From an uncultured Actinomycetota bacterium (GTDB taxonomy: Bacteria; Actinomycetota; Humimicrobiia; Humimicrobiales; Humimicrobiaceae), in assembly GCA_964423265.1 (NCBI GenBank), contig CAYREF010000006.1:1-55442 (forward strand): a stretch of 55,442 nucleotides of DNA, read 5' to 3'. The stretch's first letter is position 1, and each line of letters opens with the position of its first letter. The notes under the pieces are model-generated. The model was not told the DNA's origin and searched no databases. It saw nothing but the letters and a program-made list of their open reading frames with translations. Position numbers and translations under genes: made by a program. Shown piece after piece: positions 1 to 18,029 of the stretch.

Positions 1-106
1 ATTAGCAGCAGGATAGAGCACCAGGGAAATAAAAGAAATTGAAGGTATGTTTAAAAATAACTTCATTTAAATTAGTTAATTTATACTGTTTTTGAAAGGG
101 TAGTGG

Positions 107-442
107 TTAACAGGTAAGGTGAAATACACCCACAACTTTATTGCTTTTACTTTTGTTAAATTCTTTAACTGCTTGTTTTGTATTTTTTATAATATATTTA
201 ATCCCCAAACTTTCCAGACGCTCTATAAAGCTCTCATCTACTTTCATGAGGCCACTTGCGCCAGTTCCGATAATTAAAATATCAGGCCGGTATTCAAGAA
301 CGTCTTTTAAGTCTTCCTCTAATAGCAGGTGGCCTTTCTTTCTCCACCATTTAGACTTAACCTGGTCAGGGAATATTTTTAAATCGGACCGGTATCTTAT
401 CCCATCGATTACCATATTTCCAAAACTATATGAATCAATCAA
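107..442 (-). CDS. Mth938-like (DUF498) domain protein
   Basis: 111-aa ORF. Pattern 'YRSDLKIFPD...W.....H.L..EDL..VLEY.PDILIIGTG' resembles the small MTH938/NDUFAF3-like fold family. Recognised by eye only. Confidence 0.55.
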   Translation of the reverse strand: MIDSYSFGNMVIDGIRYRSDLKIFPDQVKSKWWRKKGHLLLEEDLKDVLEYRPDILIIGTGASGLMKVDESFIERLESLGIKYIIKNTKQAVKEFNKSKSNKVVGVFHLTC

Positions 443-529
443 TGTTTACCTCCTTTCGATCTTAGTATTATTATAGCTAAAAGCAGTTTTTTGACAAAAT
501 TGCTTTAGATCTATAAACTTTCCCAAATT

Positions 530-1231
530 ATGGACGAGAAAAGATATTTAATAGCAGGAATAGATGATGCCACCAAGTGCCCCTGTATTGGCAGCATTTT
601 CATGGCTGGGGTATTAGCAGACCGTAAAATAATTAAGTACTGGAGATCTATCGGAGTAAAAGATAGCAAAATAATAGCTCCAGAGAAAAGGCAGGAGCTG
701 GCCAGGGAAATAAAAAACACGGCTGTTTTTTGGTCTATAAAAGAAATTACTCCCCAAAATTTAACTGGGGACCAGTTAAATTTAAATGACCTGGAAATGG
801 TTACTACTTTTGGCATACTAAAGGATCTTGGAAAAAATTATGTGATAAGAAAAGTATTCATTGATAATTGGGGAGTAAATCTTAAAAGGCTTAACCTAAG
901 ATTTGATAAACTTGGAGGTAAGAGTGTAAATAGGTTGCCTGGTATAAAAATTATTGCCTCCCACAAAGCAGATGGTAAATATACTGTAGTAGGCGCCGCA
1001 TCCATTTTAGCTAAAACTGGCTCAGATAGGCAGTACACAAAGTATAGAAAAATTTTTGGAGATTTTGGAAGCGGAAATCCTGCTGATCCTAAAACCCGGT
1101 ATTTTGTTTGGAAAAATAGAAAAAATCCTCCCGGCATTATAAGGACTAGCTGGTCAACATTCAGCGACATCTCCAAGCTGAAAAATATTGATGACGATTG
1201 TATACTTGCGAAATATAAGAAGAAATGGTAA
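530..1231 (+). CDS. rnhB: Ribonuclease HII-like protein (variant active-site motif)
   Basis: N-terminal 'IAGIDDATKCPCIGSIFMAGV' aligns to the RNase HII 'GIDEAGRGPviGP' motif. 'GVKDSK', 'HKADGKYTVVGAASILAK' and 'GSGNPADPKT' match other conserved RNase HII blocks. Confidence 0.6.
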   Translation: MDEKRYLIAGIDDATKCPCIGSIFMAGVLADRKIIKYWRSIGVKDSKIIAPEKRQELAREIKNTAVFWSIKEITPQNLTGDQLNLNDLEMVTTFGILKDLGKNYVIRKVFIDNWGVNLKRLNLRFDKLGGKSVNRLPGIKIIASHKADGKYTVVGAASILAKTGSDRQYTKYRKIFGDFGSGNPADPKTRYFVWKNRKNPPGIIRTSWSTFSDISKLKNIDDDCILAKYKKKW

Positions 1232-1233
1232 TT

Positions 1234-2226
1234 CTATTTTTCAAAAATACAGTTAAAATATTTTAGTTCTTTACTGCCGCATTTTATACCTGTGGAATAT
1301 GATTCATCCTTAAAATGACTTTTCACTTCTAGTAAGCCTTTATTTTTTTCTAAAAAAGATTGCATCAATTCTACAGAAATAGCAGCCTCTTTTGCCCCCA
1401 TTTTGTATAGTTCAATAAAGGAGCTGTGAAAAATTTTATCTTTAATACATGGGTGATTCCATTTATTATTTTTAAGATTTAGGTAATCAGCTTTTTTATT
1501 AAAGGATCTGGGTAGCATCGAAGAAGTAATTTGTCCATTTTTTCCCAGAAGTATTTCTATTATTTTATAGATTAACCATTTCAGGCCATAAGGGTCCTTT
1601 AATAATTTTAGGATATCGTGCATATCTGAAATTGCTGTTAATAGCTGCGGTTCCTTTATTTGGGTTTTATAAACTTTATTAAGTATAAATTTATAATAAT
1701 CTAACAGGGAACTAGTATATTTGGCATACTTTTCAATTAATTTATAGCCCCGGAATTTATAAGGGCTCTTATAATTTTTATTTTTTAACATTAGCAAGTC
1801 AATAATACTTTCTAGTTTCCGGTGATAGGTATGATATTTTTTAGTCTCGGCTGTATTTTTATATATACCCGCTAGATAATGAATTAAGGGATGGGCAGTT
1901 TTATCTAGCCTGTAGTGGCAGATATAACCAGCCACGTATACGCTAAGGTCATCAAAGAGTTCTTGGCAACCCTCATTAGTTTTTATGTACTTCAAGCTTT
2001 CAATAAAAAAGTCCTGGACTTTGCTGTCATGCATGGTTAAGCCAAGCTTGCTCAAGCCGTCATCTTTGGTCCAAGGCTTTGCCCGGTAATAAAAGAAAAT
2101 GTCAGGGCCCTGCGAGCCTAAAAAATAAAGAGCTTTTCTTTTACTTATTTTCTGCTTTAAGTTGGTATTCTTTATCTTTTTTAATACATCTTCTGCAAAA
2201 AAGCAGTGAGTTAAAAATGCAGGCAT
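1234..2226 (-). CDS. Zinc-dependent phospholipase C-like family protein
   Basis: 330-aa ORF. N-terminal 'FLTHCFFAEDV' and 'GSQGPDIFFY' with later His-rich blocks ('HYRLDKTAHPLIHY') are typical of the Zn_dep_PLPC-like family. Confidence 0.5.
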   Translation of the reverse strand: MPAFLTHCFFAEDVLKKIKNTNLKQKISKRKALYFLGSQGPDIFFYYRAKPWTKDDGLSKLGLTMHDSKVQDFFIESLKYIKTNEGCQELFDDLSVYVAGYICHYRLDKTAHPLIHYLAGIYKNTAETKKYHTYHRKLESIIDLLMLKNKNYKSPYKFRGYKLIEKYAKYTSSLLDYYKFILNKVYKTQIKEPQLLTAISDMHDILKLLKDPYGLKWLIYKIIEILLGKNGQITSSMLPRSFNKKADYLNLKNNKWNHPCIKDKIFHSSFIELYKMGAKEAAISVELMQSFLEKNKGLLEVKSHFKDESYSTGIKCGSKELKYFNCIFEK

Positions 2227-2476
2227 CTTTCACCTATTTTTATTTTAATAACTAAAATTAACAGATTAAGCAATTTTTTAAAAGGTTTTTAGCTCTCGAT
2301 TATTTTTATAGTTTTAAATAGAAGATTGGGAAAACAAAATAGTAATTAAAAAATGTAAATGAATGGGGAAGTTATTCTAAACTTTTAAATTTATTTTACA
2401 GGCATTACATCTGAGATCTCATACCCGTTTCAGGTATTCTTTTTTTGGGTTCTAGATATTGCCTAAAAGCAAATAG

Positions 2477-2665
2477 TTAGCTTTTTTCTTGTTTTAATTT
2501 CTCAATCTCTGAAGCAAGTTTTTCCACAGAATCAAAAATACAGTCAATAGCTTTAAGGGCAAAATCGCTTTGGTATATGTCAAGCCCCATGTTTGATTCT
2601 GTAAATTGAAGCTCACTTTTTAATATAAACTTCTGGCATTTAATATATTCTTCTATTTCACCCAT
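2477..2665 (-). CDS. Hypothetical small acidic/coiled-coil protein
   Basis: 62-aa ORF in an otherwise non-coding gap. No recognisable motif. Confidence 0.3.
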   Translation of the reverse strand: MGEIEEYIKCQKFILKSELQFTESNMGLDIYQSDFALKAIDCIFDSVEKLASEIEKLKQEKS

Positions 2666-2932
2666 AATTAAGCCCTTTTAGATAAATTATAACAAAATTT
2701 ACAAAGTTTAATAAGGTATTGCAAAAAGTTAAGTTTTTTTATTACCTCTTCTTGATATATAATAATTTTATATATTAATAATATTTTATTTTATAAAATG
2801 ATGTTTTTCATAAGGAATTACAAAGATTATTATAAAATTCTAAAAATAAAAAAAATAGCTTGAAATAATGTTATGTTGTTATTATCATATACTAAATTTA
2901 GTTTATTGGGTAAAGAAAGAGAGGAAGAATAG

Positions 2933-3370
2933 ATGCCAAGAAAGAAGGAAAGTAAAAGGAAATATCAAAAAGTGGGAATAGATAAGCTTAATAGCATAAG
3001 CGCTTTAGAGATTGAAATAATGAAAATAGTATGGGAGCAGAAAAATGTTACTGTAAGAAAGGTACACGAGACTATGCTGAAGAAAGAAATACAGGAAAAC
3101 AAAGAAGAATTTACTCCTTATACTACTGTTATGTCTACCATGACTGCATTAGCTGAAAAAGGGATGTTGAAGCAGGATAAGAGTGAAAAAACATATATCT
3201 ATTCAGCTAATGTTGATAAAAAACAACTTTCTAAAAGCATAATAAAGTCAGTAGCTGAGAATTTATTGGAGGACAGTGCAAAAGATTTTGTTGCAAAATT
3301 TTTAGATGACACCAAGAACATTTCCAGAGAAGGTATAGATAAGTTACTTGAGGAAATAGATAAATATTAA
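2933..3370 (+). CDS. BlaI/MecI/CopY family transcriptional repressor
   Basis: Winged-helix pattern 'LSALEIEIMKIVWEQKNVTVRKVHETM....TPYTTVMSTMTALAEKGMLK..K.EKTYIYSA' typical of Penicillinase_R. Purine-rich Shine-Dalgarno (GAGAGGAAG) upstream of the ATG. Confidence 0.8.
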   Translation: MPRKKESKRKYQKVGIDKLNSISALEIEIMKIVWEQKNVTVRKVHETMLKKEIQENKEEFTPYTTVMSTMTALAEKGMLKQDKSEKTYIYSANVDKKQLSKSIIKSVAENLLEDSAKDFVAKFLDDTKNISREGIDKLLEEIDKY

Positions 3371-3395
3371 TAACTTCCCCAAGAAGTAAATATTG

Positions 3396-4448
3396 ATGAT
3401 ATTTATCGATATAATTTTCAATTATATAATCCCAATAATTTATGATAGTTTTGCCAGCCTGGTTTTTGTATTAGTTTTTCTTTCCATTTTCAGGATTAAG
3501 GATTCCAGCATTAGGATCATGTTTTTATTTTTACCGCTGGTAAAGCCTTTTGTAATACTATGCGAGAAAATAAATATTAGTAGCGGGGATTTAAGAATGC
3601 CTGTTGTTTTAGGAGGCCTAAGGTTTCCTGATCCCCATAATATAGCGGGAAGGTTTGAAAGCGAAATTGCAATATTTTCTGATTTAAACCATATAATTAT
3701 TTTCATTATTTTTTCTACCATAAGCTTTATACTTATACTCAGGTGGATGCATTTGTTCTTTTTCTACAGAAGCCTGGCCCATGAAGAGAAGGTTGGCAGG
3801 AAAGATGTGCCTGAAATATATTCAATTATAGATAATTATGCAGAGAAGATTAATATAAGAAAACCCGATGTGAGCCTAACCCACCGTAGTTATTTTTCCC
3901 CTTTTATAATAGGCACCAAAAGATACACATTAGTCTTATCTCCGGTGTTGCTAGAGCTGTTGTCTGAAGAAGAGAAGGAAACCTTAATCCAGCATGAATT
4001 ATCTCATATAAAAAGACATGATAACTTAATTGGGTGGGCAGCCCTTATATTGAGGGATATTCTTTTTTATAACCCTTTTTCTTATATAGCCTATGCTCTT
4101 ATAAGAGAGGAACAGGAAAAAGGTAGTGATAAATTATTGGTGAAATATTCAGACAAACCTGCCAAAGAGATAGCAAGCAACATATTGAATGCAATAAAGA
4201 AAATAAAATTAAGCTCAGAAAAAAGTTTTAGGACGGTTCCGGCGGAAGGCTCAAAGTTTTTCCCCATGGTGAAAATAAATATGAGAAGGATAAGAAACAG
4301 GATTAGGTTAATACTTAATGCCAATAAAGATAGGATAAGCAGTAGGTTATTTACCAAGATAGTGATGGTTGTTTTGTGGATATTTTTCTTATTAATTCAG
4401 ATATTAATAGTAGTAAGAATAGATGACAGATTAATATTCTTAAGATAA
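3396..4448 (+). CDS. M56 family (BlaR1-like) membrane metalloprotease lacking a penicillin-binding sensor domain
   Basis: Multiple N-terminal TM helices. Zinc motif 'HELSHIKRHD' (HExxH). Follows the BlaI gene by about 25 nt. The protein is only about 350 aa and ends in a TM helix, so no PBP-like sensor domain is present. The track start at 3393 is TTG; the ATG is at 3396. Confidence 0.75.
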   Translation: MIFIDIIFNYIIPIIYDSFASLVFVLVFLSIFRIKDSSIRIMFLFLPLVKPFVILCEKINISSGDLRMPVVLGGLRFPDPHNIAGRFESEIAIFSDLNHIIIFIIFSTISFILILRWMHLFFFYRSLAHEEKVGRKDVPEIYSIIDNYAEKINIRKPDVSLTHRSYFSPFIIGTKRYTLVLSPVLLELLSEEEKETLIQHELSHIKRHDNLIGWAALILRDILFYNPFSYIAYALIREEQEKGSDKLLVKYSDKPAKEIASNILNAIKKIKLSSEKSFRTVPAEGSKFFPMVKINMRRIRNRIRLILNANKDRISSRLFTKIVMVVLWIFFLLIQILIVVRIDDRLIFLR

Positions 4449-4495
4449 ACACTTTGACTTATATTCTTTTTATAATTTTTTTTTATATATTATTT

Positions 4496-4504
4496 TGCTA
4501 TAAT
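4496..4504 (+). promoter_or_regulatory. Putative extended -10 promoter element (TGcTATAAT) for the peptide/radical SAM operon
   Basis: 'TGCTATAAT' lies 35 nt upstream of the candidate TTG start at 4539. There is no good -35. Sequence match only. Confidence 0.3.
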
Positions 4505-4538
4505 ATCCTCAATATAATTTTTGGGAAAGGGGTATTTT

Positions 4539-4664
4539 TTGAGATCAATTAATAAAACCCAGAATTTATGGAACAAGGACCAAACTTTAAAAAACCTTAA
4601 AGCGGAAGATGGTCCAATGTGTTGCTGGTTTTGGTGCTGGTTTGGCTATGCAGGTAGAAAATAG
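4539..4664 (+). CDS. Candidate RiPP precursor peptide (41 codons): leader plus Cys/Trp/Phe-rich core
   Basis: Manual translation gives (TTG)M-RSINKTQNLWNKDQTLKNLKAEDGPMCCWFWCWFGYAGRK-TAG. A GGGAAAGGGG Shine-Dalgarno lies at 4523-4532, 6 nt before the TTG. The stop at 4662-4664 is 3 nt before the ATG of the radical SAM/SPASM gene. The ORF is below the size cutoff of the supplied track. An alternative in-frame TTG at 4521 has no SD. The internal ATG at 4617 would encode only the 15-aa tail. Confidence 0.6.
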   Translation: MRSINKTQNLWNKDQTLKNLKAEDGPMCCWFWCWFGYAGRK

Positions 4665-4667
4665 TAG

Positions 4668-6026
4668 ATGGGCTTGAAGCTAAGCAAGTACAATTTTTCC
4701 AGAAAAATTAACCAAAATTATACCCTTATTAACAACACCCTAACCGGGGCAGTGGATATTATAGAAAACAGGATCTGGGATTCTGTTAGAGATCCTGCCC
4801 ATATCGGCTCCAACCCTCTCTCTAGCTTAATGGAGAGAGGGTATCTTTATTATGACCTTAAGGAAGAAGAAAAGCTATTTAAAAAGATTTTTAACAGCTA
4901 CTTAAAAAAAGCCAAGTCCAGGCCAATTAGATATGTTTTTTGTCCAACTTACCAGTGTAATCTCAATTGTTCTTACTGTTTTGAAAAAGCTCTACCGCAA
5001 AAATCAATGGACACCAAAATGCTGGAAAGGGCCATAAAAGCTGCAGAGATTATATCAGAAAACCATTCAAACAGGATGGAAGCAGTAGAGCTATTTGGAG
5101 GTGAACCGCTGCTTCTAAAATGTAAGCTGTTAGTTGAAAAGATTTTAGAATTTGCGGCCAGTAAAGATACCATTATAACTATTGTAACCAATGGAGTAAA
5201 AGTCCATAGATTTATTGATATTTTAAAACCGTATAGAGAAAATATTGAAATGCTGCAGATTACAATAGACGGTCCCAGCCAAATACATGACAAAAGGAGA
5301 AAATACCGAACAGGAAGGGGAAGCTTCAGTGAAATAGTAAATAGCATAAGACTGCTGTTAGAAAACAGGATAAACATCAATGTGCGGGTAAACATAGACA
5401 AGTCCAATATTGAATCATTGCCCGACCTTTACCATTTTATTGATAGGCAGGGTTGGCTTAAGCACCCAAATTTTTCTATAAGGCTGGCAGAAGTTACCGA
5501 CCATAGCAGTACAGAATGTGCTGGCAATCTTATAGAGCCTGAAAAGCTATTGAAAAAGTTGATAAAAGTATATAGGGAACACCCTTATCTTGAGGACCTG
5601 TTTGGCTACTATATTTTTAAGCCGTTAAGGCATCTGCTGGACATACTTGGTGGTGCCCCCAATGTTTCACCGAAGTTTTTTAATTGTGAAAGCAATTTGC
5701 TGGAATTAAATATTTTCTGTCCTGATGGCCTAATATATGTTTGCGGAGAGTCTATTGGCAATCCCGATATGGCTATAGGCAGGTTTGATCCTTCCCTGGA
5801 ATTTTTCGGAGACAAAAAAAGCTTATGGATTGGAAGGAATGTGCTGACCCTGGAGGAATGCAGGAATTGCAAATTTGGCCCGATTTGTGGCGGAGGCTGC
5901 ATGTATTCTTCAATCCTGGTACATGGGGATTGCAGGAAGCCTGTATGTGAAAGGTATAAAGAGGTCCTAGATACATATATCGATTACAAGGGCAGCGAAA
6001 TACTAAATACGTTTTTAAGTAACTAA
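4668..6026 (+). CDS. Radical SAM/SPASM-domain peptide-modifying enzyme
   Basis: CxxxCxxC radical SAM motif 'CNLNCSYC' at nt 4956-4979. 'GGEPLL' SAM-binding block. Cys-rich C-terminal SPASM-like region ('CESN...FCPDG.IYVCGE', 'CRNCKFGPICGGGCMY', 'CRKPVCERY'). About 90 aa N-terminal to the cluster motif ('LSKYNF...LINNTLTGAVDIIE') resemble the peptide-recognition domain of sacti-/ranthipeptide synthases. Confidence 0.85.
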   Translation: MGLKLSKYNFSRKINQNYTLINNTLTGAVDIIENRIWDSVRDPAHIGSNPLSSLMERGYLYYDLKEEEKLFKKIFNSYLKKAKSRPIRYVFCPTYQCNLNCSYCFEKALPQKSMDTKMLERAIKAAEIISENHSNRMEAVELFGGEPLLLKCKLLVEKILEFAASKDTIITIVTNGVKVHRFIDILKPYRENIEMLQITIDGPSQIHDKRRKYRTGRGSFSEIVNSIRLLLENRININVRVNIDKSNIESLPDLYHFIDRQGWLKHPNFSIRLAEVTDHSSTECAGNLIEPEKLLKKLIKVYREHPYLEDLFGYYIFKPLRHLLDILGGAPNVSPKFFNCESNLLELNIFCPDGLIYVCGESIGNPDMAIGRFDPSLEFFGDKKSLWIGRNVLTLEECRNCKFGPICGGGCMYSSILVHGDCRKPVCERYKEVLDTYIDYKGSEILNTFLSN

Positions 6027-6153
6027 ACCAGGGTATTCTATTTTTCTACATATCAAAGTAGCCTAATTTTTCATTTTACCCAGAAATAGTATAATTATAG
6101 GAAATCTCTACCAGGGGTGTCAGGTATATAATATTTGGAATAGGAGAGTTTAA

Positions 6154-6633
6154 ATGGAGAAGGCAATTTTATATGCAACAAGGTATGGGTGCACTGAACA
6201 ATGCTCAAACACTCTTGCCAGCTATATTTCTGGAGAAGCAGAATTAAAGAATTTGGGTAAAGAAAAGGTAGATGTGGATAAATATGATATAGTAATAATT
6301 GGCGGATCAATAATTGCCGGAAAAATTAATAAAGAAATAAGCAGATTTTGTCTAAATAATTTAGAGGCACTTCTAAACAAAAAAATAGGCTTGTTTCTAT
6401 GCTGTCTGAGGGAAGGGGAAGAAGCAGAAAAGCAATTCAGGGATTCATTTCCCGAACAGCTTATAAAAAAGGCAGCAGTAGTAGGTTATTTCGGGGGAAG
6501 AGTTTCTTTTAAAAAATTGAATTTCTTTTTTAGAAAGATCATGAAAAAAATGCTAGAGACTGATAAGGATGTTTCTACTGTAAAGGAAGAAAATATAGAG
6601 GAATTTGCAAATAAGATAAATAGGATTACGTAG
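6154..6633 (+). CDS. Flavodoxin-domain protein (HemG-like short flavodoxin)
   Basis: 'KAILYATRYGCTE' N-terminal FMN-loop pattern and 'YDIVIIGGSI' block. 159 aa. Confidence 0.65.
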   Translation: MEKAILYATRYGCTEQCSNTLASYISGEAELKNLGKEKVDVDKYDIVIIGGSIIAGKINKEISRFCLNNLEALLNKKIGLFLCCLREGEEAEKQFRDSFPEQLIKKAAVVGYFGGRVSFKKLNFFFRKIMKKMLETDKDVSTVKEENIEEFANKINRIT

Positions 6634-7020
6634 ATGAAAATAGAGAAGGGAATTATAAAAAAAGTAGCCCTTATAACTTCAGGCTCATTGTCGTTAGGGT
6701 TAGGGGTTTTGGGGATTTTCTTACCAATACTTCCCACCACTCCTTTTCTTCTTTTATCTGCTGCCTGCTATGCAAATAGCTCCAAAAAATTCCATAGGTG
6801 GTTATTGGGTAATAAGGTTTTTGGTAAATATATAAAAGATTACAAGGAAAAAAGAGGGTTAACTTTAAAAACCAAAATAACTGCCATAGCTGTTTTATGG
6901 CTAACCATATCCTGCTCGGCTTTTTTTGCGGTAGATATTTTATGGGTTAAATTTCTTTTATTTTTGGTTGCAATTGGAGTTACCATACATCTTATTCATA
7001 TAAAGACAATAAAGTCATAG
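6634..7020 (+). CDS. ybaN: YbaN family (DUF454) inner-membrane protein
   Basis: 'GVLGIFLPILPTTPFLLLSAACYANSSKKFHRWLL' is the hallmark DUF454 motif. The ATG directly abuts the flavodoxin stop. Confidence 0.75.
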   Translation: MKIEKGIIKKVALITSGSLSLGLGVLGIFLPILPTTPFLLLSAACYANSSKKFHRWLLGNKVFGKYIKDYKEKRGLTLKTKITAIAVLWLTISCSAFFAVDILWVKFLLFLVAIGVTIHLIHIKTIKS

Positions 7021-7028
7021 GGGGAAAA

Positions 7029-9065
7029 CTGCTTTCAATCGGCATAGATGTTGGCGGAACTTTTACTGATTTCGTAGTATATGACAGTAATAAGAATAAG
7101 GTAAAGGCTTTTAAGGTACTTTCCAACAAAACCCATTCCTGGAATCCGGTAATACAGGGATTAAGGGAGATAAATGCTAGTGGGAAAATAAGGGATATCA
7201 GACATGGAACCACTGTAGGAACAAATGCTATTATCGAAAGGAAGGGCAGCAAAACCGCCCTTATAACCACCAAAGGATTTAGGGACTTATTAGAAATAGG
7301 CAGGCAAAAAAGACCTGAACTTTATAACCTCCGTGGCAGAAAGCCAGAGCCATTAATTAGCAGGGATTGGCGGCTGGAGGTAGAAGAGAGGATTGATGCT
7401 AGAGGCAAAGTACTTATTCCTTTAAATGCTAATGATCTTGGAGCTGGTATAGAAAAAATTAAGCAGGGAGGTATTGAGTCCGTAGCGATTTTGTTTTTGC
7501 ATTCATATGCTAACAATAGCCACGAGAAGAAAGCCGCTAAAATTGTAAAGGATAAGTTTCCATCTGCCTATTTGGCTGTATCCTCTGAGCTTATACCTGA
7601 ATTCAGGGAATATGAGAGATTAACTACCACCGTGCTAAATGCATATTTAGGACCTGTACTGATAAATTACTTATCTAAACTAGTTAAAGGGATTAAAAAA
7701 ATTAGAAGCGGTGCCCCCATATATATTAGCCAGTCAGATGGAGGGATTAGCTCTCCCAAAAGCATTGCTAGCTTTCCTGTAAGGACTGCTTACTCTGGAC
7801 CCAGTGCAGGGGTAGTTGGTTCAGCTGCACTGGCTGAAGAAAAGAAAATAGGGAGGAACATAATCTCACTGGATATTGGTGGCACCAGTACTGATGTGGC
7901 CTTGGTAAAAGATTTTAAGCCTGCTAAAACCGTGGAAAAAGAGATTCTAGGCTTCCCCATAAAATTTCCCACTGTTGATATACTGACAATTGGGGCGGGG
8001 GGAGGTAGTATCGCATCTGTGGAATATGGCCACCTTAAGGTGGGCCCTGGAAGTGCTGGGGCAAATCCTGGCCCTGCTTGTTATAATAGAGAAGGCCGTG
8101 AGCCTACAGTAACTGATGCAAATCTTATCCTGGGGTTAATAGGCGAGGATACTATGCTGGGAAATAAGATAAGCCTGGACAGGCAAAAAGCTGAAAAAGC
8201 TATAAAGGAAAAAATCTGTTACCCTTTTGACTGGAGCATAGAAGAAGGGGCCTGGGCAATTAATAGGATAATTTCTGATAATATTTCCAATGAAATCCGC
8301 AAGATTACTTTATCTCAGGGGATAAATCCCGGAAGCTTGAAAATGGTAGCATATGGTGGGGCTGGCCCTATGCACGCTGCCGATATTTGCAGAGATCTGG
8401 GGATAGGAAATGCAGTAATTCCTGCAAATCCCGGTGTTTTTTCAGCCGCAGGCTTGTTTAGCTGTAATAAAACTATGGATTTTGTAACTGCTTATAGCAA
8501 ACATGGCCGGACCGGACTAAAAAAAGCAATAAAGGGGCTGAGTATTAAAGGCAGGCGGTGGTTTGGAAAAGAGAACATACCCAAGAGCAGCCAAAAGATG
8601 GACTTCTTTGCTGATATGAGGTACAGGGGACAGAATTATGAAATAAATGTGCCAATTCCTAGCTTAAATACGGGAAATGATAAAATTTGGAATAACCTGG
8701 TGGAAAGCTTTAATAAAAAACATTCACAGGTTTATGGCCATTTTAAAAAAGGAGCAGCTATAGAGATAGTAAATATTAGGTTAAAATGCATTGGCAGGTC
8801 AAAAATAAAAGTTAAACATAACTTTATGCAAAAGGCTAAGGGAGCGCCGATAAAGGGGTATAGGGACATTATGTTTCTGGGTTCGGGTGGAAGGATAAGG
8901 ACTCCCATATATGACAAAATGAGGATGGATGCGGCAAGAAAAATAGAGGGGCCGGCAGTTATTGAACAAGTAGATTCAACCATAGTAATACCCCCGCAAG
9001 ATTCTGCTGTAATGGGTGAGGATGGGGATCTGGTTATAAACATATTTAAGGGGCAAAATGGATAA
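7029..9065 (+). CDS. hyuA: Hydantoinase/oxoprolinase A subunit (HyuA family); start codon uncertain and non-canonical
   Basis: The frame is open from 6951. The conserved N-terminus 'GKLLSIGIDVGGTFTDFVVYD' is encoded at 7023-7085. The first ATG/GTG/TTG in frame is TTG at 7491, which is the track's start. Candidate starts are ATA 7017, CTG 7029 and ATC 7038, downstream of or overlapping GGGGGA at 7020-7025. Confidence 0.75.
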   Translation: MLSIGIDVGGTFTDFVVYDSNKNKVKAFKVLSNKTHSWNPVIQGLREINASGKIRDIRHGTTVGTNAIIERKGSKTALITTKGFRDLLEIGRQKRPELYNLRGRKPEPLISRDWRLEVEERIDARGKVLIPLNANDLGAGIEKIKQGGIESVAILFLHSYANNSHEKKAAKIVKDKFPSAYLAVSSELIPEFREYERLTTTVLNAYLGPVLINYLSKLVKGIKKIRSGAPIYISQSDGGISSPKSIASFPVRTAYSGPSAGVVGSAALAEEKKIGRNIISLDIGGTSTDVALVKDFKPAKTVEKEILGFPIKFPTVDILTIGAGGGSIASVEYGHLKVGPGSAGANPGPACYNREGREPTVTDANLILGLIGEDTMLGNKISLDRQKAEKAIKEKICYPFDWSIEEGAWAINRIISDNISNEIRKITLSQGINPGSLKMVAYGGAGPMHAADICRDLGIGNAVIPANPGVFSAAGLFSCNKTMDFVTAYSKHGRTGLKKAIKGLSIKGRRWFGKENIPKSSQKMDFFADMRYRGQNYEINVPIPSLNTGNDKIWNNLVESFNKKHSQVYGHFKKGAAIEIVNIRLKCIGRSKIKVKHNFMQKAKGAPIKGYRDIMFLGSGGRIRTPIYDKMRMDAARKIEGPAVIEQVDSTIVIPPQDSAVMGEDGDLVINIFKGQNG

Positions 9066-10686
9066 CACGGGCATTGTTGTGTTGCAGGTAATACAGAACA
9101 GGCTGAAGGCAATAGCAGAATTAATGGGACAGGTGCTGGTAAGGAGTGCTTTCTCTGCAAATATTAAAGAAAGAAGGGATTGCTCTACTGCCATATTTGA
9201 CAAGGAGGGACAGTTAATAGCCCAGGCAGAGCATATACCTTTGCATCTTGGTTCAATGTTGGGTGTGGTAAGGGAAGTTCTTAAAGAGTATGGGAAAGAT
9301 ATAAGGCAAGGAGATGTTTTTATTGCCAATGATCCCTACAAAGGGGGTACCCACTTGCCCGACATAACATTGGTCAGCCCCTTCTTTTACAGGGGAAAAC
9401 TCCAGGGCTTTGCTGCAAACATAGCCCACCACTCAGACATGGGGGGAGCTATGCCTGGGGGAATATCAGGAAATGCTAAGTCTATTTATGAGGAAGGTTT
9501 GAGAATTCCTCCCGTAAAGTTAATATACCAGGGTAGGCCGGACAAGGAATTATTGCGCCTTATTTATATAAATTGCAGGGTTCCCGGAGAGAGACAAGCA
9601 GATTTAGATGCACAAGTTGCTACCAACAAAATGGGCATCAAGCACCTAAATGAATTATGGGAAAAATACGGCTCTATAAAAATTAGCAAAGCCATAAGTG
9701 AGTGTATGGATTATACAGAGAGCAGGTTAAGGGATAAAATCAGAAATTTAAGAGATGGCACATACAAGTTTGCGGACAAACTTGATGATGACGGGGTTAC
9801 AGACAAGCCAATTGACATAAGGGTTTTAATAAATATAGAAGGGGACCGAATAGTTTTTGATTTTACTGGTACGGACCAGCAGAGCAAAGGTGCTATAAAC
9901 GTAGTAAGATCTGCTTTGGTGGCCACTATTTTTTATGTGTTAAAAGCTTTTTTTGATCCGGAACTGCCAGCAAATTCAGGGATTGAAAGGGTGATAGAAA
10001 TAAAAGTGCCTGACGGTAGCATAATAAACCCTTCCCCTGGTGCAGCAGTGGGAGCCAGGACTGATACATGCCAAAGGATTGCCGGAACTATAATTGGTGC
10101 ATTGAATAAGGCTGACTCAAATAAGGCTGTAGCTGGATCTAATGATGCTAGCACTGCAGTGGTATTTTCAGATGGCCAAACTTTTGTTTATGTGGAAGCA
10201 GTAGCTGGCGGTGCTGGTGCCTATGAAGGGGGAGATGGAATGGATGCTGTGCAAGTCCATATAACTAATACATCTAATTTGCCTATCGAAGCACTGGAAA
10301 GAGAATTTCCCATAATGGTGGAAAAATATGAGCTCATACCGGATTCAGGAGGAAGAGGAAAGTTTAGGGGAGGGTTGGGGTTGGTAAGGAGGATCAAGGT
10401 GTTGAAGGATGGAATTATTTTTTCCTCACATGGGGATAGACATAAATTTCCGCCCTGGGGGTGGAACGGGGGAATGCATGGTAAGACCGGACGGTTTTTG
10501 TTGAATAATAAAACCGTACTACCTTCAAAATCCTCAAATATCTTATTAGGCAAGGGTGATACAATTGATGTAGAAACCCCTGGTGGGGGAGGATTCATGG
10601 ACTATTCAGAAAGGGCAGAAGCTTTAATTGCTAAAGATTTAAAAGAAGGAAAAATGGTGGGGGAATATGAACAAAGAAAAAGTTAA
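9058..10686 (+). CDS. hyuB: Hydantoinase B/oxoprolinase family protein
   Basis: 'NDPYKGGTHLPDITL' and 'GGGG' C-terminal blocks typical of HyuB. 8-nt overlap with hyuA. Confidence 0.85.
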   Translation: MDNTGIVVLQVIQNRLKAIAELMGQVLVRSAFSANIKERRDCSTAIFDKEGQLIAQAEHIPLHLGSMLGVVREVLKEYGKDIRQGDVFIANDPYKGGTHLPDITLVSPFFYRGKLQGFAANIAHHSDMGGAMPGGISGNAKSIYEEGLRIPPVKLIYQGRPDKELLRLIYINCRVPGERQADLDAQVATNKMGIKHLNELWEKYGSIKISKAISECMDYTESRLRDKIRNLRDGTYKFADKLDDDGVTDKPIDIRVLINIEGDRIVFDFTGTDQQSKGAINVVRSALVATIFYVLKAFFDPELPANSGIERVIEIKVPDGSIINPSPGAAVGARTDTCQRIAGTIIGALNKADSNKAVAGSNDASTAVVFSDGQTFVYVEAVAGGAGAYEGGDGMDAVQVHITNTSNLPIEALEREFPIMVEKYELIPDSGGRGKFRGGLGLVRRIKVLKDGIIFSSHGDRHKFPPWGWNGGMHGKTGRFLLNNKTVLPSKSSNILLGKGDTIDVETPGGGGFMDYSERAEALIAKDLKEGKMVGEYEQRKS

Positions 10687-13023: not shown

Positions 13024-14718
13024 ATGGCAGAAAAAATAAAATGCAGGGGCATGGATATAGATGTTGGATTGCTGGCAGCTGAGATATTGGAAACCCAAAC
13101 TAAACTCCAGCCAGAATTAAAACAAAAATATTCAAAAAAAGATTTTGAAGTTTGCAAAAAGGATATAGGCTACCATCTTAATTACTTATGCCAAGCTCTT
13201 TCTTGCGATAGCCTTCCTTTATTTCTGGACTATGTAAATTGGGCTACAGTTATGCTGGCTGAACGTGGCGTGCATGCAAGTGATTTTGTTAAGAACCTGG
13301 AAAGCATGATTAAGGTTTTCAGGCAAAGATTGCTTGGTGCCCTGGGGACAGACGCTATAAGTTATATAAAGCAAGCCATCAGGATAGTCAAGGAAGACAG
13401 GGCTAAGGCGGAAACTTTTATATCCCCCGGTAATAAATATTATAACCTGGCTAAGAATTACCTTGATGCTATCCTGGAGGGTGAAAAAGAAAAAGCCAGT
13501 TACCTGATATCAGAAGCAATAAAAGGGGAGGCAAGGCTAGAAGATATTTACCTCTATGTATTCCAGCCCGGCCAGTATGAGCTAGGCAGGCTATGGCAAA
13601 CAAGGAAAATAGATGTGGCAACTGAACATTACGGGACTGCAATTACCCATTCTATAATGGCCCAGCTGTATCCCCGGATTTTATCTTCTGAGAAGATGGG
13701 CTTAAGGTTTCTTGGAGCTTGCATAAATGGGGAACAGCATGAAATAGGCATAAGGATGCTCACAGACCTTTTAGAATTGAAGGGCTGGGACACTTATTAT
13801 TTAGGCTCCAATACCCCACCTGGAAGCATTATAAAAAAGATTAAGGAAAGGGAAATAGACCTGGCAGGGATATCTGCAACCATGACCTATAATCTGAGCA
13901 ATGTTGAGGATTTGATTAAAAAAATCCGGTCTGAGGCAGGGGATGTAAAAATAATGGTTGGCGGGTACCCATTTAGGGTTGATGAAAACCTATGGAAGGC
14001 AATAGGTGCAGACGGCTATGGTAGGGATGCCGGGCAAGCCTCCAGGCAGGCAACAAGCTTGGTAAAAAAAGGTAAAATAGCCAGGAAAGCAAAGGCAGGC
14101 CAAAGTTTTGTCAGCAGCAGCAAGACAGAAGCACAAAACAAGAAAAGGCTGTATTCCAAGCTGGCTGCTATCAACAATGAACTTTTAACTGCCCAGAGGA
14201 AATTAGAGAAAAAAAATATAGAACTTGAAAAATTAAACCAAGAGCTGGAGGAGATAGCCATTAGAGATCCTTTAACCAAACTTTATAACCGCAGGTTTTT
14301 CTACCAAAAAATTGAAGAAGAAATAAATAGGGCAAAGAGGTTAAATTACGGCATGGTGGTTGCTATGGTTGATATAAATAATTTTAAGCAGGTTAATGAC
14401 AGCCATGGTCATGAAGCGGGGGACAAGGTGCTAAAGAAATTTGCAAGCATTGTTGAAAATAATTTGAGGAAAGGGATAGATTCAGCGTACCGGTGGGGAG
14501 GGGATGAATTTTTAATTTTGCTGGTAGACAGCAATCTGGAAAAAGCAGAAAAAGTTTTAAAAAGATTGGATAGTAACTTAAGGAGTTATCTATCGGAGGT
14601 TTCACTTTCTTATGGTTTTGAAAAAATAAGCAGGCTGGGCAGGGTGGATATGGAAAAAATCATAAAAATTGTGGATAATAAGATGTATGAATATAAAAAA
14701 AAGCAGAAAAAAATATAG
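13024..14718 (+). CDS. Cobalamin-binding (CarH-like) sensor domain fused to a GGDEF diguanylate cyclase
   Basis: W-x9-EH ('WQTRKIDVATEH', nt 13594-13629). E-x-H-x-x-G ('EQHEIG', nt 13732-13749) followed by the Rossmann-like B12 block 'GSNTP...GISATM'. A coiled-coil linker. 'RWGGDEFLILL' (GGDEF at nt 14497-14511). Confidence 0.8.
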   Translation: MAEKIKCRGMDIDVGLLAAEILETQTKLQPELKQKYSKKDFEVCKKDIGYHLNYLCQALSCDSLPLFLDYVNWATVMLAERGVHASDFVKNLESMIKVFRQRLLGALGTDAISYIKQAIRIVKEDRAKAETFISPGNKYYNLAKNYLDAILEGEKEKASYLISEAIKGEARLEDIYLYVFQPGQYELGRLWQTRKIDVATEHYGTAITHSIMAQLYPRILSSEKMGLRFLGACINGEQHEIGIRMLTDLLELKGWDTYYLGSNTPPGSIIKKIKEREIDLAGISATMTYNLSNVEDLIKKIRSEAGDVKIMVGGYPFRVDENLWKAIGADGYGRDAGQASRQATSLVKKGKIARKAKAGQSFVSSSKTEAQNKKRLYSKLAAINNELLTAQRKLEKKNIELEKLNQELEEIAIRDPLTKLYNRRFFYQKIEEEINRAKRLNYGMVVAMVDINNFKQVNDSHGHEAGDKVLKKFASIVENNLRKGIDSAYRWGGDEFLILLVDSNLEKAEKVLKRLDSNLRSYLSEVSLSYGFEKISRLGRVDMEKIIKIVDNKMYEYKKKQKKI

Positions 14719-16838: not shown

Positions 16839-18029
16839 ATGGTTGAAAAAATTCCAATAATATTTTGGGCAATAATAGGCGTATTAGTTATAGGTATGAT
16901 GGCTTCAATACTGGTATCAGGAGTAATCCTTAAACCTGAATACAGCAAGAATACCCTAAAATACTTCAACCAGGAGTTCCTAGACAGATCTTTTGGTTAC
17001 AGCAGGGTTAAGTTATTGTTATATATTATATATAATATCCTCAGATGGTCTGCTATAATTCTTTTTTTGTATCTGGGATGGAATTTTTTAAGCCAGTTTT
17101 CCGTACTAAAAGCTTTTTTATGCTTGGCAGTTTTTTTGATTGGCCTCCAACTTATAACTTTTTCCATAAGCTATTACAGCGGCTTTGTAATTGAAAGGCT
17201 ATTTAACCTTACTACCCAGAGTTTTTCGGGCTGGCTTATTGACTACCTTAAAAGCTTTATGGTTTCATTTTTTGTGTATTTAATTTTATTTGGAGGCTTA
17301 TATATATTGCTCTTACATGTTCCGCAGTACTGGTTTGTAATTGCAGTTTTTGTGTTAATAATATTTATAGTGCTGGGAATTTTTTTATACCCTTTAATAA
17401 TTGACCCTCTATTCTATAATTTCAAATCCTTAGAAAGTGAGCCCATTAAGTCACAAATAAAGGAAATGGCCTCAAAGGCCGGGATAAGGGTAGAGGAGAT
17501 ATTGGTAGCAGATGCTAGTAGGCGGACTATAAAAGCAAATGCTTATTTTACCGGGCTGGGAAAATCCAAAAGAATAATCATCTACGATAATTTGTTAAAA
17601 AATTTTTCTGAAAAAGAGGCATTGGCTGTAATTGCCCATGAAATGGGCCATTGGAAAAAGATGCATCTTTTAAAAAAGATGGCAGTTGCAGTAGCCGGAG
17701 GTATTTTAACCCTTTTTATAATAAAAGTTATTATAAATTCAATGAATATAAGTTATGATTTTAAGGCAATTATAATTGCCTTCTTGATCTTTAGCCTGTT
17801 AAGCTTTGTGGTTATGCCACTGGAAAATTACATTTCCAGGAAATTTGAAAAAGAAGCGGACCGGCTTTCTGTAGGGCTAACCCAGGAGCCAGAGGGCCAT
17901 ATAGAGCTTATGCAGAAACTGGCCAGATCCAATTTATCAAATGTTGAGCCCAGCCGGATTGTAAAATACATAATATATAGCCATCCACCCATTATGGAAA
18001 GAATAAAGGCTGCTTCCAGCTTCAATTAA
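16839..18029 (+). CDS. M48 family (Ste24/HtpX-like) membrane metalloprotease
   Basis: Multi-TM N-terminal half, 'HEMGHW' zinc motif and downstream 'E.EAD' block. Confidence 0.8.
   Translation: MVEKIPIIFWAIIGVLVIGMMASILVSGVILKPEYSKNTLKYFNQEFLDRSFGYSRVKLLLYIIYNILRWSAIILFLYLGWNFLSQFSVLKAFLCLAVFLIGLQLITFSISYYSGFVIERLFNLTTQSFSGWLIDYLKSFMVSFFVYLILFGGLYILLLHVPQYWFVIAVFVLIIFIVLGIFLYPLIIDPLFYNFKSLESEPIKSQIKEMASKAGIRVEEILVADASRRTIKANAYFTGLGKSKRIIIYDNLLKNFSEKEALAVIAHEMGHWKKMHLLKKMAVAVAGGILTLFIIKVIINSMNISYDFKAIIIAFLIFSLLSFVVMPLENYISRKFEKEADRLSVGLTQEPEGHIELMQKLARSNLSNVEPSRIVKYIIYSHPPIMERIKAASSFN

Follow-up and report, generated by a model that had tools for sequence, protein, structure and literature searches.

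The stretch of DNA analysed here (the window) comprises the 55,442 nucleotides of contig CAYREF010000006.1 (assembly GCA_964423265.1), which belongs to an uncultured Actinomycetota bacterium of the Humimicrobiaceae. Near its left end the window carries four consecutive genes that code for a BlaI-like repressor, an M56 membrane metalloprotease, a 41-residue peptide and a radical S-adenosylmethionine (rSAM) enzyme with a SPASM domain (Table 1). The last two genes had been proposed, in an original prediction made from the sequence of the window, to encode the precursor and the maturase of a ribosomally made peptide that is post-translationally modified (RiPP). The analysis described below supports this pair, and the conserved unit turned out to be wider than had been noted, since the order repressor, M56 protease, peptide and rSAM enzyme was maintained in relatives down to 38% identity of the enzyme. 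The conserved unit is made up of four genes (positions 2933-6026), not of two.

Table 1. Genes and sequence elements of the cassette, with their positions in the window
Feature	Position	Strand	Basis
Promoter-like site of the BlaI-like gene (TTGAAA, 17 nt, TATCAT)	2860-2888	+	consensus scan, 10/12 matches; putative function
Perfect 12-bp palindrome ACTAAATTTAGT, candidate BlaI operator	2891-2902	.	directly after the -10; putative function
BlaI/MecI-family winged-helix repressor, 145 residues	2933-3370	+	Pfam Penicillinase_R, 88.4 bits (cutoff 22.6)
M56 (BlaR1-like) membrane zinc metalloprotease, 350 residues	3396-4448	+	Pfam Peptidase_M56, 73.7 bits
Extended -10 TGCTATAAT, peptide's own promoter	4496-4504	+	read from sequence; counterpart TGNTATAAT conserved in relatives
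Shine-Dalgarno GGGAAAGGGG	4523-4532	+	read from sequence; 6 nt ahead of the TTG start
Precursor peptide gene, 41 codons; core PMCCWFWCWFGYAGRK, leader about residues 1-25 or 26	4539-4664	+	TTG start
rSAM/SPASM peptide maturase with N-terminal RiPP recognition element (RRE)-like domain, 452 residues	4668-6026	+	profiles, motifs, AlphaFold2 (AF2)/Foldseek
12-bp GC-rich hairpin within the rSAM frame, then T-rich ATCTTTATTA	4813-4842	+	terminator-like scan; putative function

Translation of the peptide frame from the TTG codon at 4539-4541 yielded (M)RSINKTQNLWNKDQTLKNLKAEDGPMCCWFWCWFGYAGRK. The frame is closed by a TAG codon at 4662-4664, which is followed by a second in-frame TAG (4665-4667) and then by the ATG of the enzyme gene, and nine of the 15 final residues of the peptide are Cys, Trp, Phe or Tyr. 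The TTG-started 41-codon frame, its Cys-rich and aromatic end, the Shine-Dalgarno sequence, the extended -10 element and the 3-nt distance between the stop codon and the ATG of the enzyme had all been described in the original prediction, and each of them was found at the expected place, the two expression signals being also conserved in relatives (see below). The version of the frame given by the program that listed open reading frames (ORFs) begins further 5', at a TTG (4521) within the Shine-Dalgarno sequence, but comparison with the relatives indicated that 4539 is the true start. The promoter of the peptide gene was not picked up in a generic promoter scan because its -35 is poor, and the assignment of the extended -10 is based on conservation instead. 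The DNA motif of the core was observed once in the window, where 0.03 occurrences were expected, and an Rfam scan of positions 2000-7500 returned two sub-threshold snoRNA chance hits only, with no riboswitch or known leader RNA.

Relatives of the locus were gathered by three independent routes, starting from the enzyme, from the peptide motif or from the M56 protease, and the peptide ORF was found to be conserved in more than 45 loci of uncultured Actinomycetota (Ca. Humimicrobiia); these loci are phylogenetically related, so that their counts do not represent independent events. Starting from the enzyme, an alignment of rSAM homologs led to three close loci in GTDB genomes (L001-L003, 54-58% identity), which showed a small ORF just 5' of each rSAM gene (KSVNKTKHLWNKDLDMKGLKGDVSPMCCWIWCFLWNYW and two similar ones), and the peptide was likewise present in every further locus that could be read as DNA, i.e., L201-L203 (38-40% identity), L208 and L209. 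The small ORF was therefore kept beside the orthologous rSAM gene in 8/8 loci of this route, as well as in the locus reached from the M56 protease, L204 (GCA_051744245.1), which is 93.6% identical to the window at the nucleotide level over more than 9 kb and whose peptide differs by the replacements Q8K and N9D in the leader and by one synonymous change in the core. The scan that started from the peptide was limited to P-M-C-C-W-x-W-C variants, searched as a degenerate DNA pattern in metagenome contigs, and it retrieved 120 stretches, 35 of them with a full leader. An rSAM ortholog (52-63% identity) followed these leader-bearing peptides, 0-29 nt after the stop codon, in all 33 cases with enough contig, whereas the other 85 matches to the core motif were discarded as chance background, since they lie in GC-rich contigs and have neither leader nor rSAM gene. 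The peptide gene was always located between the M56 and rSAM genes, with the single exception of locus L207 (see below).

The relatives also share the signals for expression of the peptide. The position of the start codon was identical in the 39 loci collected by the enzyme and motif routes (TTG in 28 and ATG in 11), the Shine-Dalgarno sequence AAAGGAGG was kept at the same place in all relatives, and the extended -10 element TGNTATAAT, which is preceded by a conserved TAtTAAT, was found about 35-45 nt upstream of the start, at the same distance in most of 24 distinct upstream regions. Selection was analysed by Nei-Gojobori counting in the 39 loci on leader codons 2-25, which are outside the search pattern. 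The proportions of synonymous (pS) and nonsynonymous (pN) differences in frame were 0.71 and 0.18, respectively, a pN/pS ratio of 0.26, whereas in the other two frames these columns gave ratios of 1.10 and 3.22. Rather than drifting blindly to the frame, the ORF evolves as a protein-coding sequence, and this in-frame-only constraint, together with the conserved start codon, Shine-Dalgarno sequence and promoter, indicates a translated gene under purifying selection. On these comparative grounds, the 41-codon ORF is almost certainly a real coding gene.

A run of Trp and Cys codons located just upstream of another gene might also belong to an upstream ORF that senses charged tRNA and controls the rSAM gene by attenuation, and a hairpin with a U-rich tail does lie 146 nt into the downstream gene, where its stem is formed by the codons for P-L-S paired with those for E-R-G. 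Among 31 distinct orthologous sequences, 20 had this hairpin, and in those 20 the stem was paired in 97.5% of the cells, with four synonymous sites invariant and one pair appearing as AU, CG, UA and GC at wobble positions. Nevertheless, attenuation by the peptide ORF appears highly improbable. The 25 N-terminal residues, which lack the Trp/Cys run, are kept by strong purifying selection on the amino acid sequence, and a gap of 3-29 nt leaves no space in which a terminator and an antiterminator could alternate. In addition, the enzyme, with its RRE-like domain, is one of the peptide maturases, and a whole sub-lineage (ILSxLxxRGYFY) keeps the peptide but not the hairpin. The hairpin itself may be an attenuator or an mRNA-stability element that sets the precursor to enzyme ratio.

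The claim that the peptide is unannotated held only in part. The gene is missing from the NCBI annotation of L204, where a 46-residue product nearby is listed, and also from the lists of genes for L201-L203, and a word-indexed search of a 5.8-billion-protein collection with the peptide as query retrieved nothing similar. An exhaustive phmmer search of a library of 1.84 billion representatives, however, recovered five called relatives of 40-46 residues that have ATG starts or were extended to an upstream ATG, the named ones being all 'hypothetical protein'.

Alignment of the peptides revealed a conserved leader and a conserved core followed by a variable tail. In the leader (KSINKTKNLWNKD...), whose consensus is K/R-S-I-N-K-T-x-x-L-W-N-x-D, residues N5, T7, L10, W11 and D14 are invariant and S3, K6, K8, N12, L20 and K21 nearly so. 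The junction between leader and core reads [V/M/I]-[S/G]-P-M, with I-M and P-L also occurring in the called relatives. Within the core, PMCCWxWC, residues C28, C29, W30, W32 and C33 are invariant and position 31 is hydrophobic or aromatic, whereas the tail of 5-9 residues varies in length and sequence, is made almost exclusively of W, Y, F, I and L, and often ends in -SRK or W, so that 31 distinct cores were counted among the 39 loci. More distant peptides retain the same layout. Those of the clade with 38-40% enzyme identity show M-K-S-L-x5-L-W, separated by an acidic stretch from S-C-C-W-x3-C(C)-W-L (e.g., MKSLTSDEMLW...SSCCWNLSCWL), and Paenibacillus etheri, whose enzyme is 30% identical, has two tandem precursors (MKSLNEQATLWSDV...EYAWCFDCFCLKIDISCVSFGCIF) that contain MKSLNEQATLW...AWCFDCFC.... 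The leader motif K-S-[IL]-N/T...L-W thus travels with the enzyme lineage, as RRE-mediated recognition predicts. The core had not been recognised as that of any named family, and in agreement with this no NCBIfam or Pfam model matched the peptide.

The CxxxCxxC cluster and the Cys-rich SPASM C terminus previously recognised in the enzyme were both substantiated by the comparison of 17 homologs, in which the three Cys of the former (C97, C101 and C104) and the seven Cys of the latter (C340-x13-G354-x4-C359, C398-x2-C401-x5-C407-x3-C411 and C427) were invariant. The only Pfam models that matched were Radical_SAM (62.2 bits, cutoff 29.5) and Fer4_12; the Pfam SPASM model was not reported at E<=0.01, and no PqqD sequence model matched the enzyme. 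The N-terminal extension, to which a role in leader recognition had been ascribed, was predicted by AF2 (mean predicted local distance difference test (pLDDT) score of the enzyme, 85.3) to form an RRE-like module at residues 9-83 with three strands (9-13, 18-23 and 28-33) and three helices (34-41, 51-56 and 64-83), with a pLDDT of 80-95 over most of this region, and to precede the rSAM barrel and SPASM domain. The best solved relative in profile searches was CteB (E 2e-25), with an identity of only about 20%, and a Foldseek search with the AF2 model also placed CteB first (E 7e-17), with a full-length alignment, ahead of anSME, SuiB, TigE and ChlB.

The enzyme scored below the cutoff of every named NCBIfam maturase family, and the same was true for the 38%- and 30%-identical relatives. 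The scores (with cutoffs in parentheses) were 174 bits for CefB (NF038107; 600), 146.6 for Clo7bot (TIGR04334; 600), 131.9 for TIGR04463 (525), 126 for the geopeptide maturase (TIGR04280; 400), 119.8 for DynA (450), 106.5 for PapB (NF047865; 340), 105.4 for the ryptide maturase (600), 102.7 for the anaerobic sulfatase maturase (TIGR03942; 349.45), 97.8 for SCIFF (TIGR03974; 425), 88.9 for QhpD (453), 69.1 for YhhB (445), 66.5 for CcpM (TIGR04068; 500), 62 for GrrM (310) and 59.2 for AmcB (425), and StsB (NF045574) was not among the 25 best models. All of the top models describe RiPP maturases that act on Cys-rich peptides. An assignment as anaerobic sulfatase maturase, the non-peptide function against which the original prediction had to be weighed, was rejected in view of the sub-cutoff score and because no neighbouring gene, be it in the window or the related loci, codes for a sulfatase. 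Taken together, the CxxxCxxC motif, the SPASM domain, the RRE-like fold and the sub-cutoff scores indicate an RRE-rSAM-SPASM peptide maturase of an unnamed subfamily, with relatives in about 110 clusters at 47-63% identity whose named members come from metagenome-assembled genomes labelled 'Actinomycetota bacterium', Ca. Humimicrobiaceae or Ca. Hydromicrobium. The peptide and this enzyme are, with high confidence, a genuine precursor-maturase pair.

As to the reaction catalysed, characterised rSAM/SPASM maturases whose substrates have conserved-Cys cores generally form thioethers. Because three Cys are invariant in the core and the nearest solved and modelled relatives act on Cys, and in line with this general pattern, the products that we favour with moderate confidence would be thioethers of the sactionine/ranthionine type, which would link Cys sulfur to carbon of neighbouring aromatic residues. 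W30 and W32 are, however, as invariant as the Cys, and Trp and Tyr predominate in the tail. Therefore, the enzyme could instead introduce C-C, C-N or ether crosslinks on the invariant Trp, as in streptide, darobactin/dynobactin, the triceptide cyclophanes or the WprB products, in which case the Cys would bind a cluster or metal or form disulfides. DynA and the ryptide maturase scored level with PapB and SCIFF, SuiB and TigE were among the top fold matches, and Trp-crosslinking rSAM enzymes are documented (PMC11851443). The thioether synthase CteB was nevertheless the best match in both sequence and fold, the highest-ranking NCBIfam relatives are all partnered with Cys-rich peptides, and the matches to YhhB, GrrM and AmcB span the rSAM core only and are far below their cutoffs. 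Crosslinks on Trp are the main alternative to the thioethers, but a less likely one.

The four-gene arrangement was analysed in 38 of the related loci. The M56 gene, whose product has about 351 residues (45-58% identity), was directly upstream of the peptide gene in 38/38 and ends about 90-130 nt before it. The BlaI-like gene was upstream in 29/38, and the nine remaining contigs begin inside the M56 gene or within about 315 nt of it. The four-gene order was also observed in the 38-40% clade and in loci L204, L205/206, L208, L209 and P0085. In contrast to the cassette itself, its surroundings vary. The window and L204 share a phospholipase-C-like gene upstream and flavodoxin, DUF454 and hydantoinase genes downstream, and since the flavodoxin and DUF454 genes (whose products would be a possible reductant for the rSAM enzyme) are conserved only in L204, they were not considered members of the cassette. 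Most relatives (L001, L002, L092, L097, L126, L136, L169 and others) have the cassette inside a Wood-Ljungdahl gene cluster of the opposite strand that codes for a pterin-binding protein, RACo, FolD, formate-tetrahydrofolate ligase and subunits of carbon monoxide dehydrogenase/acetyl-CoA synthase, and still other relatives have different flanking genes. The Wood-Ljungdahl genes were rejected as functional partners and treated as synteny, given their location on the other strand and their absence from the flanks of the window.

The frequent location within a Wood-Ljungdahl cluster would also fit a peptide from which a small cofactor for redox reactions or metal binding is made, as is the case for pyrroloquinoline quinone (PQQ), mycofactocin or the Cys-Trp quinone of QhpC, rather than a secreted or signalling product. 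Cofactors of this kind are produced by rSAM/SPASM enzymes, the enzyme matches QhpD weakly, and the cassette lacks an exporter. Nevertheless, the tail varies even among close relatives, unlike in cofactor precursors, and neither a partner dehydrogenase nor tailoring enzymes are conserved. With the strand and the absence of the Wood-Ljungdahl genes mentioned above also speaking against it, a cofactor is very unlikely. The particular case of a cysteine tryptophylquinone made as in QhpC was rejected on the sub-cutoff QhpD score, the lack of dehydrogenase partners and the variable tail of the core.

The products of the first two genes resemble a repressor and the protease that inactivates it. BlaR1 is known to cut BlaI directly at the bond between N101 and F102 (PMC9834060), and when the BlaI-like protein of the window was aligned to S. 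aureus BlaI (1SD4/1XSD), K122 and F123 were opposite this cleavage site. The M56 gene most likely starts at the ATG at 3396 rather than at the TTG at 3393 given by the ORF lister, since the homologs have 350-354 residues and begin with M-F/I. Its product has a H201-E202-x-x-H205 motif that, with E240 and D246, was invariant in 23 homologs, and its topology, which is based on hydropathy, comprises four hydrophobic segments, the third and fourth of which enclose the protease domain. Because only 11 residues follow the last hydrophobic segment, the protein lacks a penicillin-binding sensor domain, and the NCBIfam model blaR1_generic accordingly matched it with 48.3 bits (cutoff 400) over profile positions 102-331 of 585. 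The protein also matches Pfam M48. In the 38-40% clade there are second, peptide-less copies: L201 and L202 carry a second BlaI-like gene right after the rSAM gene and, past an M42 peptidase gene of the opposite strand, a second M56 gene (6533-9338), and L203 has a second BlaI-like gene directly after the rSAM gene (6492-6902). The BlaI/M56 pairs are therefore multi-copy in those genomes.

The promoter regions of the cassette contain candidate operators. The half-site of the palindrome that follows the -10 of the BlaI-like gene (ATACTAAA/TTTAGTAT) recurs in the peptide promoters of the relatives, which show inverted copies ATACTAAAA ... TTTTAGTAT, and TAGTAT/ATACTA was enriched 5- to 7-fold in the BlaI and peptide promoter regions, a count that is uncorrected for relatedness. 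The combination of BlaI and M56 most likely controls the peptide promoter, a regulatory link that we consider probable. A perfect 7-1-7 palindrome, TAATATTaAATATTA, located at about -170 from the start of the BlaI-like gene, is conserved in most relatives and is not obvious in the window.

Alternatively, the main task of the M56 protein might be to remove the leader or mature the modified peptide as a membrane-embedded zinc protease, comparable to the M50 protease of Paenibacillus, SkfC or Ste24, while BlaI would simply repress the operon and answer some other cue. No other protease is conserved in the cassette, the Paenibacillus cluster has an M50 membrane metalloprotease right after the rSAM gene, the M56 protein has no sensor domain and matches the Pfam family that includes Ste24, and at locus P0085 an M48/Ste24-like protease is encoded directly after the rSAM enzyme. 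However, BlaI and M56 are paired throughout, also in the second pairs without peptide, which fits a repressor/anti-repressor module; BlaI retains the Phe at P1' of the known BlaR1 cleavage site; locus L207 has BlaI and peptide without M56; and the junction of leader and core (V/M-S-P followed by M-C-C) is unlike the N-F or S-F bonds cut by BlaR1. A main role as leader peptidase therefore seems rather doubtful, and it would in any case be compatible with the regulatory scheme outlined below. A Ste24-like M48 CAAX-type membrane protease is encoded elsewhere in the window (16839-18029), about 11 kb downstream of the cassette, and that of locus P0085 has the same architecture; these proteins could represent an alternative processing protease or a coincidence.

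With BlaI/M56 regulation and thioether formation as the favoured readings, the following scheme can be proposed. The 41-residue precursor is translated from the TTG start on a message made from its own extended -10 promoter, as the comparative evidence shows, and its hydrophilic leader would be bound by the RRE-like N terminus of the enzyme, a step suggested by the predicted fold and by conservation of the leader down to 30%-identical enzymes. A 5'-deoxyadenosyl radical, with the assistance of two auxiliary clusters, would then crosslink the invariant C-C-W-x-W-C core. BlaI would repress its own promoter and that of the peptide until the M56 protease, whose zinc site would face the cytoplasm, cuts it at the site homologous to that between N101 and F102. 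Because the M56 protein lacks a sensor domain and the product is short, very hydrophobic and aromatic, the mature peptide is a natural candidate for the signal, which would create an autoinduction loop, and the protease might also, or instead, remove the leader, both ideas being speculative. Taken as a whole, with the thioethers and the BlaI/M56 control included, the reading of positions 2933-6026 as four genes that serve to make and regulate a RiPP from a hitherto undescribed family was judged somewhat more probable than its opposite. A bolder version, in which a sensor-less BlaR1-type protease has been recruited to sense or process its own rSAM-crosslinked, membrane-active peptide in a quorum-sensing-like circuit, cutting BlaI once the mature product builds up in the membrane, with a crosslink type not yet described such as Cys sulfur to Trp, is an unlikely one.

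Several observations weigh against this scheme. Enzymes that form thioethers (PapB, 107 bits) and C-C bonds (DynA, 120; ryptide maturase, 105) were inseparable by homology, all of them scoring below cutoff. The evidence for the operators is weak, since the genomes are AT-rich and the TAGTAT counts are not corrected for phylogeny, and the peptide promoter of the window lacks an AGTAT half-site, having a degenerate version only. No transporter that would account for export of the product is conserved in the cassette. The AF2 model of the M56 protein (pLDDT 52) was too poor for fold comparison, and phmmer against the PDB found no solved M56 relative. At locus L207 (GCA_964387355.1, positions 1-4371 of a 5.2-kb contig), the BlaI-like gene is followed after 21 nt by a peptide gene (MISINKTKNLWNNDKKFKKIKSSFRRVPLCCWFWCWWVINN) and then by Cas1/Cas2/Csm6-like genes, with neither M56 nor rSAM gene; this peptide may be an orphan second copy, or the locus may have been rearranged by insertion of CRISPR-Cas genes. 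Lastly, the enzyme relatives at 27-30% identity have no BlaI or M56 gene nearby, and the coupling is therefore specific to this lineage.

Two further genes of the window deserve mention. In the hydantoinase A gene downstream of the cassette (6951-9065), the frame is open from 6951 and the N-terminal domain (LSIGIDVGGTFTDF...) begins near 7029, but there is no ATG, GTG or TTG codon before 7491; the same situation was found in L204, where the NCBI start is an ATA, and translation probably begins with the CTG at 7029, which GGGGG precedes by 4 nt. In an ORF at 13024-14718, B12-binding domains are joined to a GGDEF diguanylate cyclase domain, which would suggest cobalamin-dependent cyclic di-GMP signalling.

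The cassette adds to the rSAM RiPPs a precursor family, with a KSINKTxxLWNxD leader and a CCWxWC core with aromatic tail, and an enzyme subfamily, both from sediment Actinomycetota of a class, Ca. Humimicrobiia, that has no cultured members, and neither of them covered by an NCBIfam or Pfam family model. The core is unusually small and aromatic, and whichever crosslink is formed, a thioether to Trp, Phe or Tyr or a C-C bond on Trp, the product is likely to be a new scaffold. Furthermore, the coupling to a sensor-less BlaI/BlaR1-like pair provides a testable clue to the cue perceived by 'orphan' BlaR1-like proteases that lack a penicillin-binding domain, and the locus illustrates that TTG-started genes of about 40 codons are systematically missed by gene callers.

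When compared with known systems, the enzyme is closest in architecture to the ranthipeptide (thioether) maturases of the CteB/SCIFF and PapB types (PDB 5WGG/5WHY), with which it shares the N-terminal RRE, the rSAM core, the 7-Cys SPASM domain and a short multi-Cys substrate encoded immediately upstream. It differs from them in the substrate, a C-C-W-x-W-C core with an aromatic tail instead of the six-Cys SCIFF motif or Cys-x3-Asp repeats, in the acceptors, which would need to be aromatic or hydrophobic, and in the partner genes, BlaI and M56. The uncharacterised maturases of CefB ('Cys-every-fifth'), Clo7bot, TIGR04463 and the geopeptide aligned over their full length, including the N-terminal domain, and also have short Cys-rich precursors, but with 126-174 bits against cutoffs of 400-600 the window enzyme falls outside all four. 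Because no mention of these four families was found in the literature searched, they are not informative about the chemistry. The Paenibacillus etheri cluster (L013) has in common with the window the leader M-K-S-L-N-x-x-x-x-L-W, a Cys- and aromatic-rich core and the NCBIfam profile of the enzyme, and differs in its two tandem 47-residue precursors with five Cys each and in its two-component system, M50 protease and ABC/FtsX transporter.

On the regulatory side, BlaI/BlaR1 and MecI/MecR1 likewise consist of a Penicillinase_R repressor adjoining an M56 HExxH protease with four hydrophobic segments. In the window, in contrast, the protease has no penicillin-binding sensor, the repressor gene comes first, and the genes downstream are those of a RiPP precursor and an rSAM enzyme instead of a beta-lactamase or PBP2a. 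A small precursor is also encoded together with a membrane protease in the peptide autoinduction circuits Agr (AgrB/AgrD) and SKF (sporulation killing factor; SkfA/SkfB/SkfC), and SKF adds an rSAM thioether synthase. Their proteases belong to the AgrB and CAAX/Abi families, respectively, rather than to M56, these systems have dedicated sensors or exporters, and to our knowledge neither of them includes a BlaI-type repressor. No connection between rSAM RiPPs and BlaR1/M56 proteins was found in the literature searched, nor any description of this core or of Cys-Trp crosslinks made by rSAM enzymes. The cassette is therefore of a known kind, that of the rSAM/SPASM RiPPs, and what is new in it is a precursor and enzyme family with an unprecedented conserved BlaI/M56 partnership.

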